Positions 21-8,999 are shown, numbered from the stretch's first letter. The stretch is 12,806 bases of DNA from Candidatus Hermodarchaeota archaeon (GCA_048885925.1 JBHLLG010000079.1:1-12806); one strand, 5' to 3'. The notes: generated from the letters alone by a model not told the origin. Translations and numbers: made by a program.

Positions 21-2111
21 TTGACAGATATGAGCTATTTTTTTGAAGTTTTAGCTAAGAAGATTGGTTATTCTAGAATAGGCCGAATTCTCTTTTCTAA
101 AGAAAGAAAATTATACATTAAAACACCTAATATTATCATTCCTATAAAAAGTACATTAATGAAACAATTGAATTTTATTCAAGAATTTGAAAATCATGAT
201 TTGTTTGAAATTACTAAGGAATTTTTTTTGAAAATTGGATTTATAAGGGAGAAATTCAGGAATAATGGATTCATTTTTACATATCCTGGTACAATTCAGG
301 AATTTCAACAAATATTAGAAAAAAATGCAAAGATATTTTCTCAAGATAATATAATCTCAATTATTCCTTTCAATATTCCTACTACTAGTATTTCCAAGGA
401 TTTTTCAGTCAAAGAAATAAAAAATTATCTTATAAATACCGAAAAAATATTAAAGATATATCCAAATATAAATTTTGGCTTATCAATCAGACTTTTTGAT
501 TATACTGAATTGTTTGAACTTTTTATTTCAACAATAAAACAATTCCAAAATATAAAAATTGTGAGCTTTATTGATCTTTTTGATAATCTTAGAAATTTTA
601 GGAGCATTTTAAAAGTAATTTTTAAACTTAAAAACGAATTGGATAACAATTTAATTGTTTTGGCTTCTGGTAGAATCATTCCAAAATATTATCCGCTACT
701 TATCTATTTAGGAATAGATCTTATCGACTGTTCTTATTCTATGTTTTTATCTGCAGAAAACTTTTATGATACAATAGAATACCTTTTACCAATATATAAA
801 GTTAAGTATTTACCTTGTTCCTGTTTAGCTTGTAAAGGTAATTTAATTAATATACTAGATAATAAATATTCATCTGAAAAGATTGAATTATTAAGCTTAC
901 ACAATTTAATTACAGCTTCTAATTACATGAAAAAAATTAATCAATATTTAAATTATGAAGATTTTAGAGTATTTGTTGAGAAATCTGCTTTTGATGAAGC
1001 AAATTTAATTTCAATGTTAAAGGTATTAGATAAAGAGTATTATGATTATCTTAAATATGAAACGCCAATAATACAAAATAATAAAACAATAAGATGTCTT
1101 GGACCTTTATCATATAATAGACCAGATTTTCAATACTTTAGAGAAAACACTATTAGAAGATTTGAACCTGAACCATGGACAACCTTAATAATTTTACTTC
1201 CATGTTCCGCTAAAAAACCATATTCAAAATCTAAATCGCATAAAACTTTTTATAATATTATAAGAAAATTCCCAGAATTTCCAAATTTTCAAGAATTTAT
1301 TTTAACTTCACCATTAGGAGTAATACCAAGACAATTGGAAAATATATATCCAGTTAATTCTTATGATATCTCTGTAACCGGTGATTGGGATAATGAGGAA
1401 ATATCTATCACAGCAGATATGCTTATTAAAATACTGGAAAAATATGATATAAAGATTCCAATTATTTGCCATTTAACAGGAGGATATCTTGAAATTATAA
1501 AGAAAGCTTCAAAAAATTTACAGCATAATTTTATTTTCTCAGAAATTCCTGATAAGACGACTTCTTTTGCATCACTTAAATCTTTAGAGAATTTAATCAT
1601 TGAATATAAAAACAAATTTCTATTGAAAAATAGTATAGTTAAAAATGAATATTTTTCAAGATCTTGGACTAGGAAATTTATTAAAATTTTAGATTATCAA
1701 TTTGGTATCGGAACAGGTAATAAAATTTTAACTAATGGATTAAAACCTATTCGTGTAAGATTTAATGATCAAATTGATTTAAAAGATCTAAAAACTAACG
1801 AAAAATTAGGGATTTTTAAATTTTCTACTGGACAAATCGAATTAACCCTTAATGGACTAAGAAGATTAAATAAAACTTCAATTTCTATTAGTTCTAATTA
1901 TATTGCCTTTGATGGAGAAGAAATTCGCGGAAATACCTTATTTCGAACAGGTGTGATTGATTACAGCTTAGATCTTATCCCAGATAATCAGGTAGTTATT
2001 GTTGATAAAAAAAAGAGAAATATAATAGGGAGTGGAAAGTTAATAGTTGGTTCAAGTTTTCTAAAAAATTCTAAAAGCGGGAGAATAGCAAATATATATG
2101 AATGGAAATAA
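21..2111 (+). CDS. arcS: Archaeosine synthase subunit alpha (ArcS; TGT-like barrel + DUF5591-type domain + PUA)
   Basis: 696-aa ORF. It has TGT-like motifs (SRIGRI..KTPNI, LGIDLIDC, Zn site CSCLAC...HN), the ArcS signature LLPCSAKKPYSKSKSH and LTSPLGVIPRQLE..YP...YDI.VTGDW, and a C-terminal PUA-like region (GNTLFRTGV...D.QVVIV...IIGSG). It lacks the DSGG motif of active TGTs and sits next to raSEA. The start may be TTG 21 or ATG 30. Confidence 0.9.
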   Translation: MTDMSYFFEVLAKKIGYSRIGRILFSKERKLYIKTPNIIIPIKSTLMKQLNFIQEFENHDLFEITKEFFLKIGFIREKFRNNGFIFTYPGTIQEFQQILEKNAKIFSQDNIISIIPFNIPTTSISKDFSVKEIKNYLINTEKILKIYPNINFGLSIRLFDYTELFELFISTIKQFQNIKIVSFIDLFDNLRNFRSILKVIFKLKNELDNNLIVLASGRIIPKYYPLLIYLGIDLIDCSYSMFLSAENFYDTIEYLLPIYKVKYLPCSCLACKGNLINILDNKYSSEKIELLSLHNLITASNYMKKINQYLNYEDFRVFVEKSAFDEANLISMLKVLDKEYYDYLKYETPIIQNNKTIRCLGPLSYNRPDFQYFRENTIRRFEPEPWTTLIILLPCSAKKPYSKSKSHKTFYNIIRKFPEFPNFQEFILTSPLGVIPRQLENIYPVNSYDISVTGDWDNEEISITADMLIKILEKYDIKIPIICHLTGGYLEIIKKASKNLQHNFIFSEIPDKTTSFASLKSLENLIIEYKNKFLLKNSIVKNEYFSRSWTRKFIKILDYQFGIGTGNKILTNGLKPIRVRFNDQIDLKDLKTNEKLGIFKFSTGQIELTLNGLRRLNKTSISISSNYIAFDGEEIRGNTLFRTGVIDYSLDLIPDNQVVIVDKKKRNIIGSGKLIVGSSFLKNSKSGRIANIYEWK

Positions 2112-3198
2112 TTATCATATGACAAAAGAAAATACTCTTGTTGAAAAAATTAATTTAATTAAACAAAATGCTCGAAATCACAGATCTCCTTATGGAGAAG
2201 AACAACTAAATCATCCAATAAGTTTTTGGGTAAAAAAGGATAGACTTTTAGATGAAATAGGAAAAGAGTTAACAATTATTTTACGAACTAGAGGATGCAG
2301 TTGGGCATTAAGTCAACATGGAGGATGTTCCATGTGTGGATATTATCTTGATGCAAATATGCAGAGTGTTTCAGTTTCACAGATTATTAGTCAATTTGAT
2401 TATGCTCTTAACAATAAAATTGAAGAAATTAAACGAGATTCCAATAACTTTATTTTAAAAATATTCAATTCAGGAAGTTTTTTGGATGAAAATGAAATTC
2501 CAGAAAAAGCTAGAGTCGATATTTATGAAAAAATCTCAAAACTAAATAAATTTAAGGAGGTTGTTATAGAATCGAGAGTCGAATATATAACAACACAAAA
2601 AATAGAAGAAATGAGAGACATTCTTAATAATAAGTATCTTGAAATAGCTATTGGACTTGAAACTGTAAATGATTATATTAGATATAACTACATAAATAAA
2701 GGAATTTCATTTAAGGATTTTAAAGATGCTTTAAACATATGCAAAACTTGTAATATTGGTGTAAAAGTGTATTTAATGTTTAAACCGCTCTTTCTTAATG
2801 AACAAGCGGCGATTGATGATTGCTCCTATTCTATAAAAGTCTTGAAGGGTTTGGGAGTGAATTCAATATCTATTAATCCGATGAATATTCAAAAAGGAAC
2901 TGTAGTAGAATATCTATGGTATCAAAATAGGTATAGACCACCATGGTGGTATTCACTTTTCAAATGCATAAAAAAATCTGTTAATCAGAATGATTTAAAA
3001 AATCTACGTTTATTATCAGATCCTTCAGGAGGAGGAAAAAATAGAGGAATTCATAATTGCCTTAAGAAGGAATGCGAAAATTCTTCGAAAATTACACTTA
3101 AAAATTTTAATCTTTCTCAAAATTTAAATGAACTAGACAAACAAAAAGATTTTTGTGAATGCAAAAAAAAATATCAATTACAGAAAAATTATTATTGA
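2098..3198 (+). CDS. raSEA: Archaeosine biosynthesis radical SAM enzyme RaSEA (TIGR01210-like)
   Basis: Motifs TIILRTRGCSW.....GGCSMCGY (atypical CX9CX2C), KIFNSGSFLD, ESRVEY, EIAIGLET, INKG, VKVYLMFKP, YRPPWWYS and RGIHNC. Overlaps the arcS end by 14 nt; alternative ATG at 2119. Confidence 0.92.
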   Translation: MNGNNYHMTKENTLVEKINLIKQNARNHRSPYGEEQLNHPISFWVKKDRLLDEIGKELTIILRTRGCSWALSQHGGCSMCGYYLDANMQSVSVSQIISQFDYALNNKIEEIKRDSNNFILKIFNSGSFLDENEIPEKARVDIYEKISKLNKFKEVVIESRVEYITTQKIEEMRDILNNKYLEIAIGLETVNDYIRYNYINKGISFKDFKDALNICKTCNIGVKVYLMFKPLFLNEQAAIDDCSYSIKVLKGLGVNSISINPMNIQKGTVVEYLWYQNRYRPPWWYSLFKCIKKSVNQNDLKNLRLLSDPSGGGKNRGIHNCLKKECENSSKITLKNFNLSQNLNELDKQKDFCECKKKYQLQKNYY

Positions 3199-3346
3199 AA
3201 TTTCTTATAGGAGAGTATTTTATTACGAATAATATAACAAATTTTTTAATTGCCATTTGTGTAGAAATCTATAGGAAAAACCATTATATTTAAATATTAA
3301 CAACCATCTTTTATTTTAATTTTCATCCATTCTTTAAGGGGATCTC

Positions 3347-3601
3347 TTGAGAAAGAACTGGGTTAAATTGAATCTATTCTATATTGGACAATCAGCTAAA
3401 AAACATCAAATATTTAGAGCAAAACAATGGAATAGTAAATTAGAAAAAATATTCAAACAACCGGTTTTTAATGAAAAATACCAGAAGGTTGGTTACATTA
3501 AAGATATTATTGGCCCCGTAGATTCTCCTTTCCTTTCAGTTAAAATAATACCTAATGCACAATTTAATCCCGATGATAAACTTTTTACTAAGATTACTTA
3601 G
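3347..3601 (+). CDS. gar1: Gar1/Naf1-family H/ACA RNP protein
   Basis: 84 aa with VFNEKYQKVGYIKDIIGPVDSPFLSVK, the Gar1 'V.D.....IG.V.DI.GPV..PY..VK' motif. It lies directly upstream of tfb, a common archaeal gene pair. TTG start at 3347 (alternative TTG 3368). Confidence 0.85.
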   Translation: MRKNWVKLNLFYIGQSAKKHQIFRAKQWNSKLEKIFKQPVFNEKYQKVGYIKDIIGPVDSPFLSVKIIPNAQFNPDDKLFTKIT

Positions 3602-3637
3602 CTTTTTAACGTTATTTAAAAAAATATTTTTAAAAAA

Positions 3638-3643
3638 AAGGTG
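3638..3643 (+). promoter_or_regulatory. Shine-Dalgarno-like AAGGTG upstream of the predicted ATT start of tfb
   Basis: AAGGTG lies 6 nt before ATT 3650. The same core precedes canonical starts in the window (AGGTG 5504-5508 before TTG 5517; AAGGTG 11760-11755 before ATG 11745). Confidence 0.7.
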
Positions 3644-3649
3644 TGTTAA

Positions 3650-4621
3650 ATTTCAAATTGGAAAGAATCAAATTCCTTAAATGAAGAGTATTCAAGTGCA
3701 GAAACTAATTTATGTACTGAATGCGGAAAAGATATATTTTTTGATGAAAATCGGGGATTAGTAGTTTGCGAGGAATGTGGTTTAGTCCATTCTGAAAAAC
3801 ATATTGACAATGGACCAGAATGGAGAGCATTTGATGCTGATCAAAAGAAGAAAAGAACAAGAACAGGAGCGCCTATGACTTATATGATACACGATAAAGG
3901 ACTTAGTACTATGATAGATTGGAAAAATCGAGATATTTTTGGCAAAGAAATACCAGCAAAACTAAGAGGTCAGATTTATCGATTACGGAAGTGGCAAAGT
4001 CGCATTAGAGTTTCTGATGCAACAGAAAGAAACCTTACATTTGCATTAAGTGAACTTGATCGTATGGCCTCAAATCTAGACCTACAAAAAAACCTAAGAG
4101 AGTGTTCAGCAAAAATATATAGAGATGCTGTTGAAGCTCATTTGATTCGTGGAAGGAGTATAGAAGGAGTAGCAGCTGCAAGTTTATATGCAGCTTGTAG
4201 AATGTATAAAGTTCCTCGAACATTAAATGAAATTGCTGAAGTAGCTCGTGTAGACAAAAAAGAAATTGGTCGATCTTACAGATTTATTTCAAATGAATTA
4301 TCTTTAGAATTAAATCCTTCTCGTCCAATAGACTTTCTTCCAAGGTTTATATCAGAATTAGGATTAACAACAAGATGTCAAAAAGCAGCCAAAAAAATAA
4401 TTAGAATGGCAGAAGAACGTGGACTAACATCTGGAAGGGGCCCTACGGGAGTATGTGCTGCGTCAATTTATGCAGCATGTATTTTATCCAATGAACGGAG
4501 AACGCAAAGAAAAATAGCACGTATTAGTTGTGTTACAGAAGTTACAGTGCGAAATCGATTTAGTGAGCTTGTAGAAAACCTTAATCTCGGATTATCATTA
4601 AAAAAAAACCATAAAACCTAA
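3650..4621 (+). CDS. tfb: Transcription initiation factor IIB (TFB), full length ~323 aa, predicted ATT start
   Basis: The ORF track starts at ATG 3875, but the same frame is open from 3650. The extension encodes the Zn ribbon (CTECG...VCEECG), B-reader [10 protein letters not shown] and RTRTGAP, followed by the cyclin repeats ([43 protein letters not shown]). There is an in-frame TAA at 3647-3649 and no in-frame ATG/GTG/TTG from 3650 to 3874. Identity is very secure; the exact start is inferred. Confidence 0.93.
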
Positions 4622-6049: not shown

Positions 6050-6520
6050 TTGAGTTATTCTGAGGATGAACTTCAATTAAAAAAGATTTTAACCGCAGTT
6101 ATAAATAGCACAGCAGGACTCAAGCATGCTCTTATAACTGATGATACAGGAATAACAATATTAAGTCAATCTAAATTTAAATTTTCTGATTCGAATAAAG
6201 TTTCTGTAGAAAAGATCGGCGCAATCGGGAGTGCTGTTTTTGTAGCAGGCGAGGAACAAGGACATATTTTGGGTTATGGCGGCATTGATTTACAAATTAC
6301 TGAATATATGGATGGAATGATTTTTTCAATGAAAGTTGATAAAGGAGTCCTTTGTATTGCAACGGATAAAAATGTTCAAATAGGATTTATTAGAGCTACT
6401 ATGAAGAGATGGAGTGGACAGATTAGTGCAATATTGAATAGATATTTACAAGCAGATCAAGCTGAAATGAGTAAAGAACTAAAGGAATTATTTCGATCTG
6501 ATACTATAGGTATGTTATAA
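6050..6520 (+). CDS. Roadblock/LC7 (MglB/LAMTOR-like) domain protein
   Basis: 156 aa. LKKIL....GLKHALITDDTGITILS, EKIGAIGSAVFVAGEEQG..LG.G, QITEY.DG.I and VLCIATDKNVQIGFIR are typical of Roadblock/LC7. It has a ~25-aa C-terminal helical tail. SD-like AGGTTGA lies before TTG. Confidence 0.85.
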   Translation: MSYSEDELQLKKILTAVINSTAGLKHALITDDTGITILSQSKFKFSDSNKVSVEKIGAIGSAVFVAGEEQGHILGYGGIDLQITEYMDGMIFSMKVDKGVLCIATDKNVQIGFIRATMKRWSGQISAILNRYLQADQAEMSKELKELFRSDTIGML

Positions 6521-7458: not shown

Positions 7459-8211
7459 TTAATCATTTTTTAATAATGTTAGAATATCATCATAAGAACC
7501 AAGTAGTTCCTTAACATTTTGATTTCTTAATCCTTCTTTAGGTTCGCCGTTAAAAATAATTTTACCATCATCCAAAAATAACATAGTTTCAGCCCAGTGT
7601 TCAACGAAAAACAAATTATGGGATGTGAAAAATATCGTAATATTCATTTCTTTCCTTAATTTCTCCAAAATTTTAAGATGATTATAAATCGATTTAAAAT
7701 CAAGATTGGCAAAAGGTTCATCTAAAATAAGTAATTTGGGCTTCATTACTAACAATCCTGCTAATGCAGCTCTTTTTTTTTGCCCCCAAGAAAGATTAAA
7801 AGGGGAATAATGTTTAAATTCAAATAAATCTACCGCTTCTAAGGCCCATTTAACTCTATATTTAACTTCTTCTTCATCTAATTTCAAATTCCTTGCTCCA
7901 AAACCGACATCCTCTTCGATTGTTGGAGCAAATAATTGATCATCAGGATTTTGGAATAAAAAGCCAATTGATTTTCTAAGTTCCCATAATGATTGTTTAT
8001 CTCTTGTAAGAGTTTTATTGAAAATCTTAATTAACCCTGAGCTCGGTTTTAATAAACCTACTATCAATCTCAATAAGGTTGTTTTACCTGATCCATTATT
8101 TCCAGTTAATCCACAAATGACTTTTTCTTCTAATTTAAAAGATAAATCATGTATATTAAAACCTGAATTATAACTAAAGTTTAGATTTTCTACTTCTACT
8201 GCAAAATTAAT
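7459..8211 (-). CDS. cbiO: ECF transporter ATPase (CbiO/NikO), ~250 aa, predicted ATT start
   Basis: FLFQNPDDQLFAPTIEEDVGFG, LSWGQKKRAALAG, LILDEPFANLD and SHN. The frame continues upstream of the track start (8073) through Walker A GLTGNNGSGKTT to (I)NFAVEVENLNFSY. No ATG/GTG/TTG occurs upstream of 8073 before the in-frame stop at 8316-8314. ATT at 8211-8209 follows AAGGTG (8224-8219) by 7 nt. Confidence 0.88.
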   Translation of the reverse strand: MNFAVEVENLNFSYNSGFNIHDLSFKLEEKVICGLTGNNGSGKTTLLRLIVGLLKPSSGLIKIFNKTLTRDKQSLWELRKSIGFLFQNPDDQLFAPTIEEDVGFGARNLKLDEEEVKYRVKWALEAVDLFEFKHYSPFNLSWGQKKRAALAGLLVMKPKLLILDEPFANLDFKSIYNHLKILEKLRKEMNITIFFTSHNLFFVEHWAETMLFLDDGKIIFNGEPKEGLRNQNVKELLGSYDDILTLLKND

Positions 8212-8999
8212 GAAAATACACCTTGATAAATTAATTCTAAGTCTATAACAAAAATAAAAATGATCACCATTAAAGAGAACAAAATTATTAATCCCAAATC
8301 TGTCAATTTTAATTTATTTTGAACAAATGTTATTTTACCAGAAAAACCTCTCATTTTTAAGCTTTCATATAGTCTTTCACTTCTTTCCATATTCATTATT
8401 ATGCTTTTACCCATAATATAAGCATGAGTTTTTAATTTTTGCCAATATGAAGTGATTTTTTTACCTCTCATCTCCTGAGCATCTAATATCTTTTTATTAG
8501 ACATTGCCAGAATTGGAATATAATGTATCATTATTATTAATGATCCTACTAAAACTGAGGGTAATCTTAATTTAGTTAGAGCGTCTATAAATTCGGAATA
8601 AGTTAAAGTGGAAAAAAATGACATAAAAATGAAAAGAGCTGCAATGACTCTAAAAAAAATAAGGGAAGCTAGATATAGTCCTTCTTTATAAATTATAATT
8701 CTAAACCCAAGATTTAATATGTAAAACTTAGTATCCCCGACGTAAAATGGAATGAATACAGTTATAAGAAAAACTAATGGTATAATTACTTTTAATCTTG
8801 AGAGTATTTTTATAATACTTAATCGAAGTATTAAATTAATTATAAGAGTAACTAACAAAATTGTGAATAAAAGATAAAAATCTTCTAATAATAGAACAGG
8901 TATAACAAAAATAAATGGTAAAATTAGGCGAATAAGGGGATGAACTCTCATTAAATAACGTTTTTCGCTTTCAAGCCGAAAAGGTAGTATTATTTTCAA
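8196..8999 (-). CDS. cbiQ: ECF transporter transmembrane T component (CbiQ/NikQ)
   Basis: Hydrophobic 267 aa with HPLIRL, LRLPSVL...YIPIL, AQEMRG and ERSERLYESLKMRGFSG (the two X-R-X coupling motifs). TTG start after AAGTGA. Confidence 0.9.
   Translation of the reverse strand: MKIILPFRLESEKRYLMRVHPLIRLILPFIFVIPVLLLEDFYLLFTILLVTLIINLILRLSIIKILSRLKVIIPLVFLITVFIPFYVGDTKFYILNLGFRIIIYKEGLYLASLIFFRVIAALFIFMSFFSTLTYSEFIDALTKLRLPSVLVGSLIIMIHYIPILAMSNKKILDAQEMRGKKITSYWQKLKTHAYIMGKSIIMNMERSERLYESLKMRGFSGKITFVQNKLKLTDLGLIILFSLMVIIFIFVIDLELIYQGVFSLILQ

Follow-up and report, generated by a model that had tools for sequence, protein, structure and literature searches.

Translation starts at AUU behind a Shine-Dalgarno (SD) sequence are known from E. 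coli, in infC (encoding IF3) and pcnB, and NCBI translation table 11 counts ATT, ATC and ATA among its starts. Mitochondria initiate at AUA, AUU and AUC, and eukaryotic eIF1 autoregulates its own synthesis through a poor start context. Among Asgard archaea, a "rare" ATT start was proposed for the tubulin AtubA of Kariarchaeaceae (Sci Adv 2026, PMC13394414); in the accessible portion of that article the deposited protein is described as too short and an upstream ATT, plausibly spaced from a ribosome-binding site, restores the conserved N-terminus. The accessible portion of a paper on profilin discusses uncertainty of the start and does not raise ATT. A systematic account of AUU or AUA starts in Asgard or other archaea was not found in the literature searched.

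The gene considered here encodes a transcription initiation factor IIB homologue (TFB) and lies in a stretch of 12,806 nucleotides, referred to as the window. Full-length TFB is very probably made by SD-led initiation at AUU 3650 with the ordinary initiator tRNA, as one case of a lineage-wide use of ATT, ATA or ATC (ATH; AUH in RNA), a reading drawn from comparison of genomes. Like infC and pcnB, TFB would thus carry a near-cognate AUU behind an SD, be read by initiator tRNA and be missed by gene callers limited to ATG, GTG and TTG. It differs from them in its archaeal host with eukaryote-type factors (aIF1, aIF2) and in the frequency of the start type, which is exceptional in bacteria as opposed to 54 GGTG-led ATH candidates in one genome here. 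A fidelity factor appears to be placed on AUU in both settings, infC in E. coli and aIF1 in the Loki-type genus; infC is autoregulated, and the parallel with aIF1 is one of sequence. As in mitochondria, AUH starts would be accepted by a single Met initiator tRNA and, by analogy with eIF1, the weak start of a stringency factor could set its own level, although in contrast with both the code is unchanged and an SD is in use. TFB also resembles AtubA as an Asgard gene with an upstream ATT that restores a conserved N-terminus; AtubA, as far as the accessible text goes, is a single gene of another Asgard class presented with no comparative or genome-wide test (PMC13394414).

The TFB locus and its product

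When read from ATT 3650, the TFB gene is intact and full length (Table 1). GTG 3641, TGT 3644 and TAA 3647-3649 are in the same frame as this ATT, the frame remains open for 323 codons up to the stop at 4619-4621, and the earliest canonical start codon (ATG, GTG or TTG) is codon 76, so that a mechanical listing of ORFs from canonical starts yields only a 248-aa form from ATG 3875. The preliminary description had proposed that an in-frame stop directly precedes ATT 3650, that the 75 codons from there on specify an intact Zn ribbon and B-reader and lack any ATG, GTG or TTG, and that TFB can therefore be full length only from this ATT; all of this was borne out, the first point as GTG-TGT-TAA-ATT and the second by Pfam and NCBIfam matches as well as by the ORF listing. 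As judged by codon usage, the chance of 75 codons free of canonical starts (P ~0.075) is not small, so that what stands out is the stop placed immediately before a conserved, selected Zn ribbon. TTG 3658 belongs to a frame other than that of TFB, one that is shut after 8 codons.

Table 1. Features of the TFB locus, in window positions
Feature	Position	Strand	Basis
Upstream A/T-rich region with likely promoter	3601..3637	+	24-orthologue upstream alignment
Shine-Dalgarno site AAGGTG	3638..3643	+	Orthologue conservation; complementarity to 16S 3' end in relatives
Spacer TGTTAA, 6 nt, non-coding; in-frame stop TAA 3647-3649	3644..3649	+	Variability across 75 orthologues
ATT, inferred start codon	3650..3652	+	First sense codon past stop; ATT/ATC in 75/75 orthologues
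TFB CDS, 323 codons + stop	3650..4621	+	NF001658, Pfam and PDB matches
Zn ribbon, residues 22-61, Cys 22/25/40/43; B-reader region then up to Met76	3713..3832	+	PF08271; coding-type conservation
ATG, codon 76, first in-frame canonical start; false start of ATG/GTG/TTG-only ORF calling	3875..3877	+	ORF listing

The product has the domains expected of an archaeal TFB. NCBIfam NF001658 matched residues 12-315 over profile positions 6-310 of 312 with 461 bits (cut-off 384 bits), PF08271 (Zn_Ribbon_TF) matched with 47.9 bits (cut-off 29 bits) over the stretch that contains the four Cys, and PF00382 (TFIIB repeat) matched the cyclin-like core in two stretches with 157.5 bits. PDB entry 1d3u_B matched residues 121-314 (E = 2e-63). 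Thus, in common with archaeal TFB and eukaryotic TFIIB (1d3u_B, 1ais_B, 1pft_A, NF001658), the protein spans the full length of the profile, with a Zn ribbon, a B-reader/linker region and a pair of cyclin repeats; unlike these it has an ATT start and a conserved N-terminal tail, I-S-(S/N)-W, with unusually fixed synonymous sites in codons 1-3. The genome that contains the window (G000; a 3.9 Mb draft of 181 contigs, 29% G+C, 95% complete) gave 11 TFB-like matches, and all seven other TFB paralogue loci that were read carry ATG, GTG or TTG within 6 codons of the upstream stop.

Upstream of TFB, a Gar1-like 84-aa ORF (window 3347-3601, + strand; Pfam Gar1, 30 bits) ends 48 nt ahead of the TFB start in the same frame, with three in-frame stops in between. 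Downstream, a 156-aa ORF (window 6050-6520, + strand) weakly matches MAPKK1_Int (27 bits), the family to which the MAPK-scaffold (MP1) adaptors of eukaryotes belong.

The start region among TFB orthologues

A TFB orthologue was present in all 23 other genomes of the genus (85-91% identity), and a scan of contigs gave 80 further TFB loci. From 97 loci examined (L001, L009-L031, L038-L110), nine outside the motif pattern (L074, L077, L097-L100, L104, L107, L108) were left out and 13 exact duplicates dropped, which gave 75 distinct orthologues. GGTG was present in every one of these and was followed by the start position after 6 nt (68 orthologues), 7 nt (4), 8 nt (2) or 5 nt (1). At the start position ATT was noted in 70 orthologues and ATC in 5, with neither ATG nor ATA in any, from a pattern that would also have admitted both. 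The question raised beforehand, of whether the tfb 5' regions conserve ATT or ATG at this position, was thus answered in favour of ATT or ATC.

While the start was fixed as ATT or ATC, the spacer varied in length and in sequence (TAAATT, TAATTT, TGAAAT, TATTTT, GGATTT and others). Stops in the spacer were TAA, TAG or TGA, at codon -1 or -2, and GTG-TAA directly ahead of the start was the commonest form. The GTG within GGTG was unusable, owing to an in-frame stop or frame break in the spacer, in 38 of the 75 orthologues, including 5 in which spacers of 5 or 7 nt shift it out of frame. Since the spacer tolerates stops as well as changes of length, it would be non-coding and the GTG not a start codon. 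The other 37 orthologues carry an in-frame canonical codon, usually the GTG inside GGTG, from which the reading frame runs open into ATH, and for these a GTG start has to be allowed for. Among the 75, 20 have no such upstream codon but have a canonical codon between ATH and the Zn ribbon, at offsets of 5-16 codons, and 18, the window included, have no canonical start that retains the Zn ribbon. The commonest of the internal sites, codon 7, reads ATG, GTG, CTG, TTG, TTA, ATA, CTT, AAA, GGG, CCG or TCA among the 24 orthologues of the genus.

Conservation of the coding type was evident in the 54 codons from the first Cys. Thus, variable sites among 24 orthologues numbered 16, 10 and 53 at codon positions 1, 2 and 3, and pairwise codon differences were synonymous in 4715 cases versus non-synonymous in 1370, a pattern that argues that the region ahead of Met76 is translated. 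The four Zn-ribbon Cys were retained in 24/24, and stops or frameshifts within the N-terminal region were absent from all 75 orthologues. Compared with 53 of 54 variable third bases in the Zn-ribbon region, third bases of codons 1-3 (ATT TCA AGT/AAT; window 3650-3661, L009-L031) were nearly invariant, that of codon 2 (TCA) being the same in 24/24. ATA, although it accounts for 34% of Ile codons, is absent from codon 1. The fixed third base of TCA and the missing ATA suggest a constraint on the TFB start at the level of RNA.

Outside the family, the start was canonical at most loci. ATG or TTG was noted in five of six loci from other families (L032-L036), including GGTG, 6 nt and then ATG in L032, while in L037 the first canonical in-frame codon is codon 65. 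One locus, L074 (JAWOFX010000041.1), lacks 7 nt present in the other orthologues; the loss takes out ATTTCA and moves the TTG within AGTTGG into frame, at 7 nt past GGTG, and by its alignment, this is a natural swap of the putative ATT start for TTG.

Candidate ATT, ATA and ATC starts elsewhere in the genome

The occurrence of ATH behind GGTG was determined in G000 from the first 12 codon positions of ORFs of at least 150 codons, ahead of any canonical start, with GGTG 5-9 nt upstream (Table 2). Compared with pooled control codons (GGTG at 13/4219), odds ratios were 7.0 for ATT (p = 2e-9) and 7.4 for ATA (p = 8e-9), and the spacing peak was 7 for ATT and ATA as for ATG and TTG. There were 54 GGTG-led ATH candidates, 12 of them ambiguous (canonical start within 8 codons). 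A broader scan, with five-letter SD sequences and the first 30 codons, gave an excess of 25 for ATT and 9 for ATA, which was not taken as an estimate, the background being drawn from codons past real starts.

Table 2. Codons preceded by GGTG at 5-9 nt in ORFs of G000
Codon	With GGTG	Total
ATG	61	1569
TTG	25	454
GTG	5	209
ATT	28	1329
ATA	23	1035
ATC	3	281
AAT (control)	3	1212
TTA (control)	3	1083
TAT (control)	1	752
TTT (control)	6	1172

Samples of 400 kb each from G037 (another family) and G006 (same genus) gave small counts that point in the same direction: ATG 6, TTG 2, ATH 4 and controls 0/422 for G037, and ATG 6, TTG 1, GTG 2, ATH 5 and controls 1/430 for G006. SD-led ATT, ATA and ATC starts are a predicted regular feature of this Lokiarchaeia-type genus and are probably common to its order, and TFB is one of dozens of genes in the lineage with a candidate ATH start. 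The preliminary description had called AUU starts rare in bacteria; rarity does not hold for this lineage, in which ATT and ATA stand at SD spacing in dozens of genes.

Among 20 ATH-start candidates run against Pfam, the domain began before the first canonical start in 16 (Table 3); the remaining four (L127, L129, L132, L134) were not decisive.

Table 3. Pfam domains that begin before the first canonical start
Domain	Domain start (residue)	First canonical start (residue)
Short-chain dehydrogenase	5	48
RagA/Arf GTPase	6	82
BadF-type ATPase	19	33
IMPDH	17	51
AOR N-domain	5	38
Hexapeptide repeat	15	29
Receiver domain, first	5	21
Receiver domain, second	7	18
GFO/IDH/MocA	6	20
CorA	69	95
Rubredoxin-like domain	6	62
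HIT	36 (DcpS_C 24)	52
Alpha/beta hydrolase	20	23
ATPase subunit D	11	16
Nucleotidyl transferase	1	33
ABC ATPase	21	37

Comparison of single genes between loci revealed exchange of ATH with canonical codons in some and not in others. For IMPDH, the start position in 23 genus loci holds ATT in 2 (G000 and L215), GTG in 4 and ATG in 12, the remaining 5 loci starting one codon later with ATG (4) or TTG (1), and in the CorA alignment other loci have ATG or TTG where G000 has ATA. Such exchange with ATG, e.g. in IMPDH, indicates that ATH is a true start-codon state. HIT has ATT in 18 of 21 loci and ATA in 1, with ATG or TTG one codon upstream in 2, and the RmlA-like gene has ATT in 6 and ATA in 1 of 7 loci. 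By comparison, A-type ATPase subunit D (L138-L157) has ATH in 20/20 loci (ATA 10, ATT 6, ATC 4), with no canonical start at ATH or up to 12 codons after it in any of the 20; an in-frame TTG or GTG occurs upstream in L139 and L156. In 14 of these 20 loci an in-frame TAA or TAG at codon -2 directly follows GGTG, with ATH 3 nt past the stop; the upstream gene may end at this stop, which would imply translational coupling.

The gene for aIF1 (SUI1) was found at 22 genus loci, one of them unreadable (Ns), and in all 21 readable loci an in-frame ATT lies 5 codons ahead of CxxC with no canonical start before this motif. The arrangement AGGTTGTGA-TAA-GAG-AGT-ATT is conserved (G000:C24:8656-8970, i.e. 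L273 1426-1740, and L274-L295), and aIF1 thus probably starts at ATT. Loci from other families were mixed, with GTG, TTG or ATA candidates for the aIF1 start. That TFB, aIF1 and ATPase subunit D never appear to leave ATH while other genes do is a notable feature of these alignments.

A CbiO/EcfA-like ABC ATPase, encoded on the minus strand of the window beside CbiQ and CbiM genes, has GGTG at 8219-8222, followed after 7 nt by ATT at 8209-8211. Counted along the stop-to-stop frame, its ABC_tran domain begins at residue 55, and TTG 8073 (residue 81), the earliest canonical codon, is past the Walker A motif GNNGSGKT; from this layout it is a putative second ATT-start gene of the window. A methionyl-tRNA-synthetase-like ORF (KWIVTSAWPYVNYTPHLGN...; G000:C87, + strand, ~1843-3895) extends for 170 codons past the upstream stop with no ATG, GTG or TTG, and an obvious SD with ATH was not seen at this ORF.

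Probable initiation at AUU and competing explanations

A 16S rRNA gene was not found in G000, and for this reason the anti-SD was taken from relatives. The 16S 3' end reads ...GGATCACCTCC in both G021 (same genus) and G037 and is complementary to (A)GGTG(A). Distances from GGTG to the first ATG of 1991 long ORFs peaked at 5-10 nt (14, 19, 18, 14, 15 and 10 counts, against a background of ~1), and the GGTG of TFB, 6 nt ahead of ATT, falls inside this peak, with pairing judged on the 16S of G021 and G037. The SD that had been described 6 nt upstream of ATT is hence well supported by its presence in all orthologues, its spacing in 68 of them and the complementary 16S of relatives. In a scan of G000 with aragorn, 12 tRNAs were found without and 31 with introns allowed. 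One clear initiator-type tRNA-Met was noted (anticodon CAU, ends A1 and U72, GGG/CCC anticodon stem), and an initiator-like tRNA with a GAU or UAU anticodon was not found among the tRNAs of this 181-contig draft. Because the initiator anticodon is plain CAU, AUU would be read as a near-cognate codon. Taken together, initiation of TFB at AUU behind an SD is judged highly probable: AAGGUG would pair with the 16S rRNA 3' end and select AUU 3650, initiator tRNA would read it, and the protein would begin Met-Ser-Asn-Trp, or Ser-Asn-Trp after removal of Met. The GTG within the SD and the TAA that follows would serve as spacer and not as a functional mini-ORF.

An assembly or sequencing error, with a true ATG at 3650 or an indel that would put a canonical start in frame, is next to impossible in view of the sequencing runs. 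Twenty of 21 listed runs, from nine studies, contain the window stretch or part of it, and contigs from four were compared in detail, i.e., DNA runs X1 (3355-3754, 0 differences; this may be the source sample), X4 (3359-3847, 4 differences) and X6 (3301-3928, 7 differences) from three studies and the RNA library X20 (3643-3801, 4 differences). None of the listed differences falls between 3558 and 3668, and all four contigs keep TAA-ATT with no ATG at 3650, which disposes of the assembly errors at 3640-3660 that were to be looked for. An A-run (3614-3642) was skipped in the comparison, one unlocated gap each in X4 and X6 may fall there, and the site adjoins part of this run (3630-3639); against this, 3643-3668 is free of differences in all four runs and a stop or frame break ahead of ATH is common to 38/75 independent orthologue assemblies. 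A genuine sequence might still encode a short TFB from ATG 3875, lacking Zn ribbon and B-reader, with the upstream 75 codons as a decaying remnant. ATG 3875 is the sole canonical start and TFB-like paralogues are numerous in G000, but the conservation of 54 codons in a coding manner, the retention of all four Cys and the absence of stops and frameshifts among the orthologues make this explanation extremely unlikely, and GGTG, GGAG or GAGG was not seen in the 25 nt before 3875.

The remaining alternatives accept a start near ATT and differ in how it would be reached. Initiation at GTG 3641, followed either by readthrough of the stop or by termination at TAA and re-initiation at ATT 3 nt on, as in a start-stop mini-ORF, draws on the in-frame GTG of the window and of most orthologues with 6-nt spacers, on the prevalence of GTG-TAA directly before the TFB start and on the like position of the ATPase D start after GGTG-TAA/TAG. 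It is nevertheless very unlikely, as only an A-run and no SD lies upstream of GTG, GTG is out of frame in 5/75 orthologues, no stop separates the canonical codon from ATH in 37/75, the identity and position (codon -1 or -2) of the stop vary where there is one, and the genome-wide ATH peak is at spacing 7, where GTG is out of frame. Of the two views of GTG-TGT-TAA offered in the preliminary description, coincidence is accordingly retained, GTG being part of the SD and the spacer variable, and the mini-ORF is not. A start at or near ATT that is independent of the SD, with a very short or absent leader, choice of the start from the 5' end and GGTG kept for another role such as a promoter initiator region, is unlikely but merits more attention. 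Alignment of 24 upstream regions revealed a TATA-like element, TCTTTTAAAA, conserved in the genus orthologues with its centre ~26 nt ahead of GGTG and with a likely promoter role. The usual archaeal spacing from TATA to start would put the RNA start near GGTG and give TFB a short leader, one that might even start close to the SD; were this element to set the RNA start at GGTG or beyond it, the SD would be unable to act. Opposed to this are the GGTG-to-ATH distance, held at 6 nt in 68/75 and within the SD-to-ATG range of the genome, and the same GGTG-6 nt-ATH arrangement in internal operon genes such as ATPase D. Weakly opposed is the X20 RNA-library contig, which has 20 more letters upstream of 3643, contigs having no power to show an RNA 5' end. 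A start at the out-of-frame TTG 3658 with programmed frameshifting into the TFB frame has a vanishing probability: this TTG sits 14 nt past GGTG, but its frame closes after 8 codons, it is missing in L019 (AGTCGG) and L024 (AACTGG), and the codons after it vary, so that there is no conserved slippery site.

Whether SD-led initiation at AUU regulates TFB is a separate matter. Since ATT and ATA starts are common in the lineage, ATT alone is no mark of special regulation of TFB, and there is only partial support for the suggestion that AUU gives this one gene a rare means of regulation. The fixed ATT or ATC of TFB (75/75), as opposed to the swapping start of IMPDH, fits selection for a non-ATG start and is no proof of it. 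The lack of ATT/ATG swaps could also mean that Ile is required at this position, a reading that would leave 18-38 orthologues with no start. A regulatory role of the TFB start is plausible, in that a fixed ATT might lower the level of TFB or tie this level to initiation stringency. A broader scheme is possible although doubtful, in which SD-dependent initiation makes regular use of AUU, AUA and AUC, selection keeps a subset of dosage-sensitive core genes (TFB, ATPase subunit D and aIF1) on AUH, aIF1 acts as a homeostat in the manner of infC or eIF1, and the level of TFB is coupled to initiation stringency.

The ATH start type is common in the lineage and is already present in NCBI gene calls. 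Thus, 7 of 12 TFB orthologue proteins read (P0018, P0028, P0029, P0031, P0034, P0035, P0047) are of 322 aa, begin with MSSW or MSNW and start at the TFB ATT, with P0029 among them corresponding to locus L043, where a canonical start is lacking; these calls are automatic and are no evidence of use. The other five start at GTG (MCY, MCF), at an internal GTG or TTG (317 and 308 aa) or inside the Zn ribbon (291 aa). Public calls for the TFB family range from 291 to 336 aa, one being without the first Zn-ribbon CxxC, and truncated or mis-started calls include P0020, P0043 and P0121. Exact look-ups in the protein collection returned neither P0001 nor the truncated 248-aa protein. The expectation that standard callers would truncate TFB is therefore correct for calling limited to ATG, GTG and TTG and is not correct for the seven NCBI proteins called from ATT. 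Asgard archaeal proteins receive close study for what they may reveal about how eukaryotes arose, and most catalogues of them rest on callers that accept only those three codons; should ATT and ATA be regular starts in this lineage, many N-termini in these catalogues would be cut or mis-started. Frequent AUH starts would also allow a test of whether start-codon stringency is relaxed or tuned in a system with eukaryote-type factors, aIF1 itself probably being on ATT.

A further arrangement was noted in Hermodarchaeota-type TFB orthologues (L111-L113). In these the Zn-ribbon CxxC lies at codon 12-16, no canonical start comes before it, and GAGGAGG-cagaag-TAA-ACG occurs ~20 nt before position 301; ACG or ATT may be the start of TFB in this other Asgard class.
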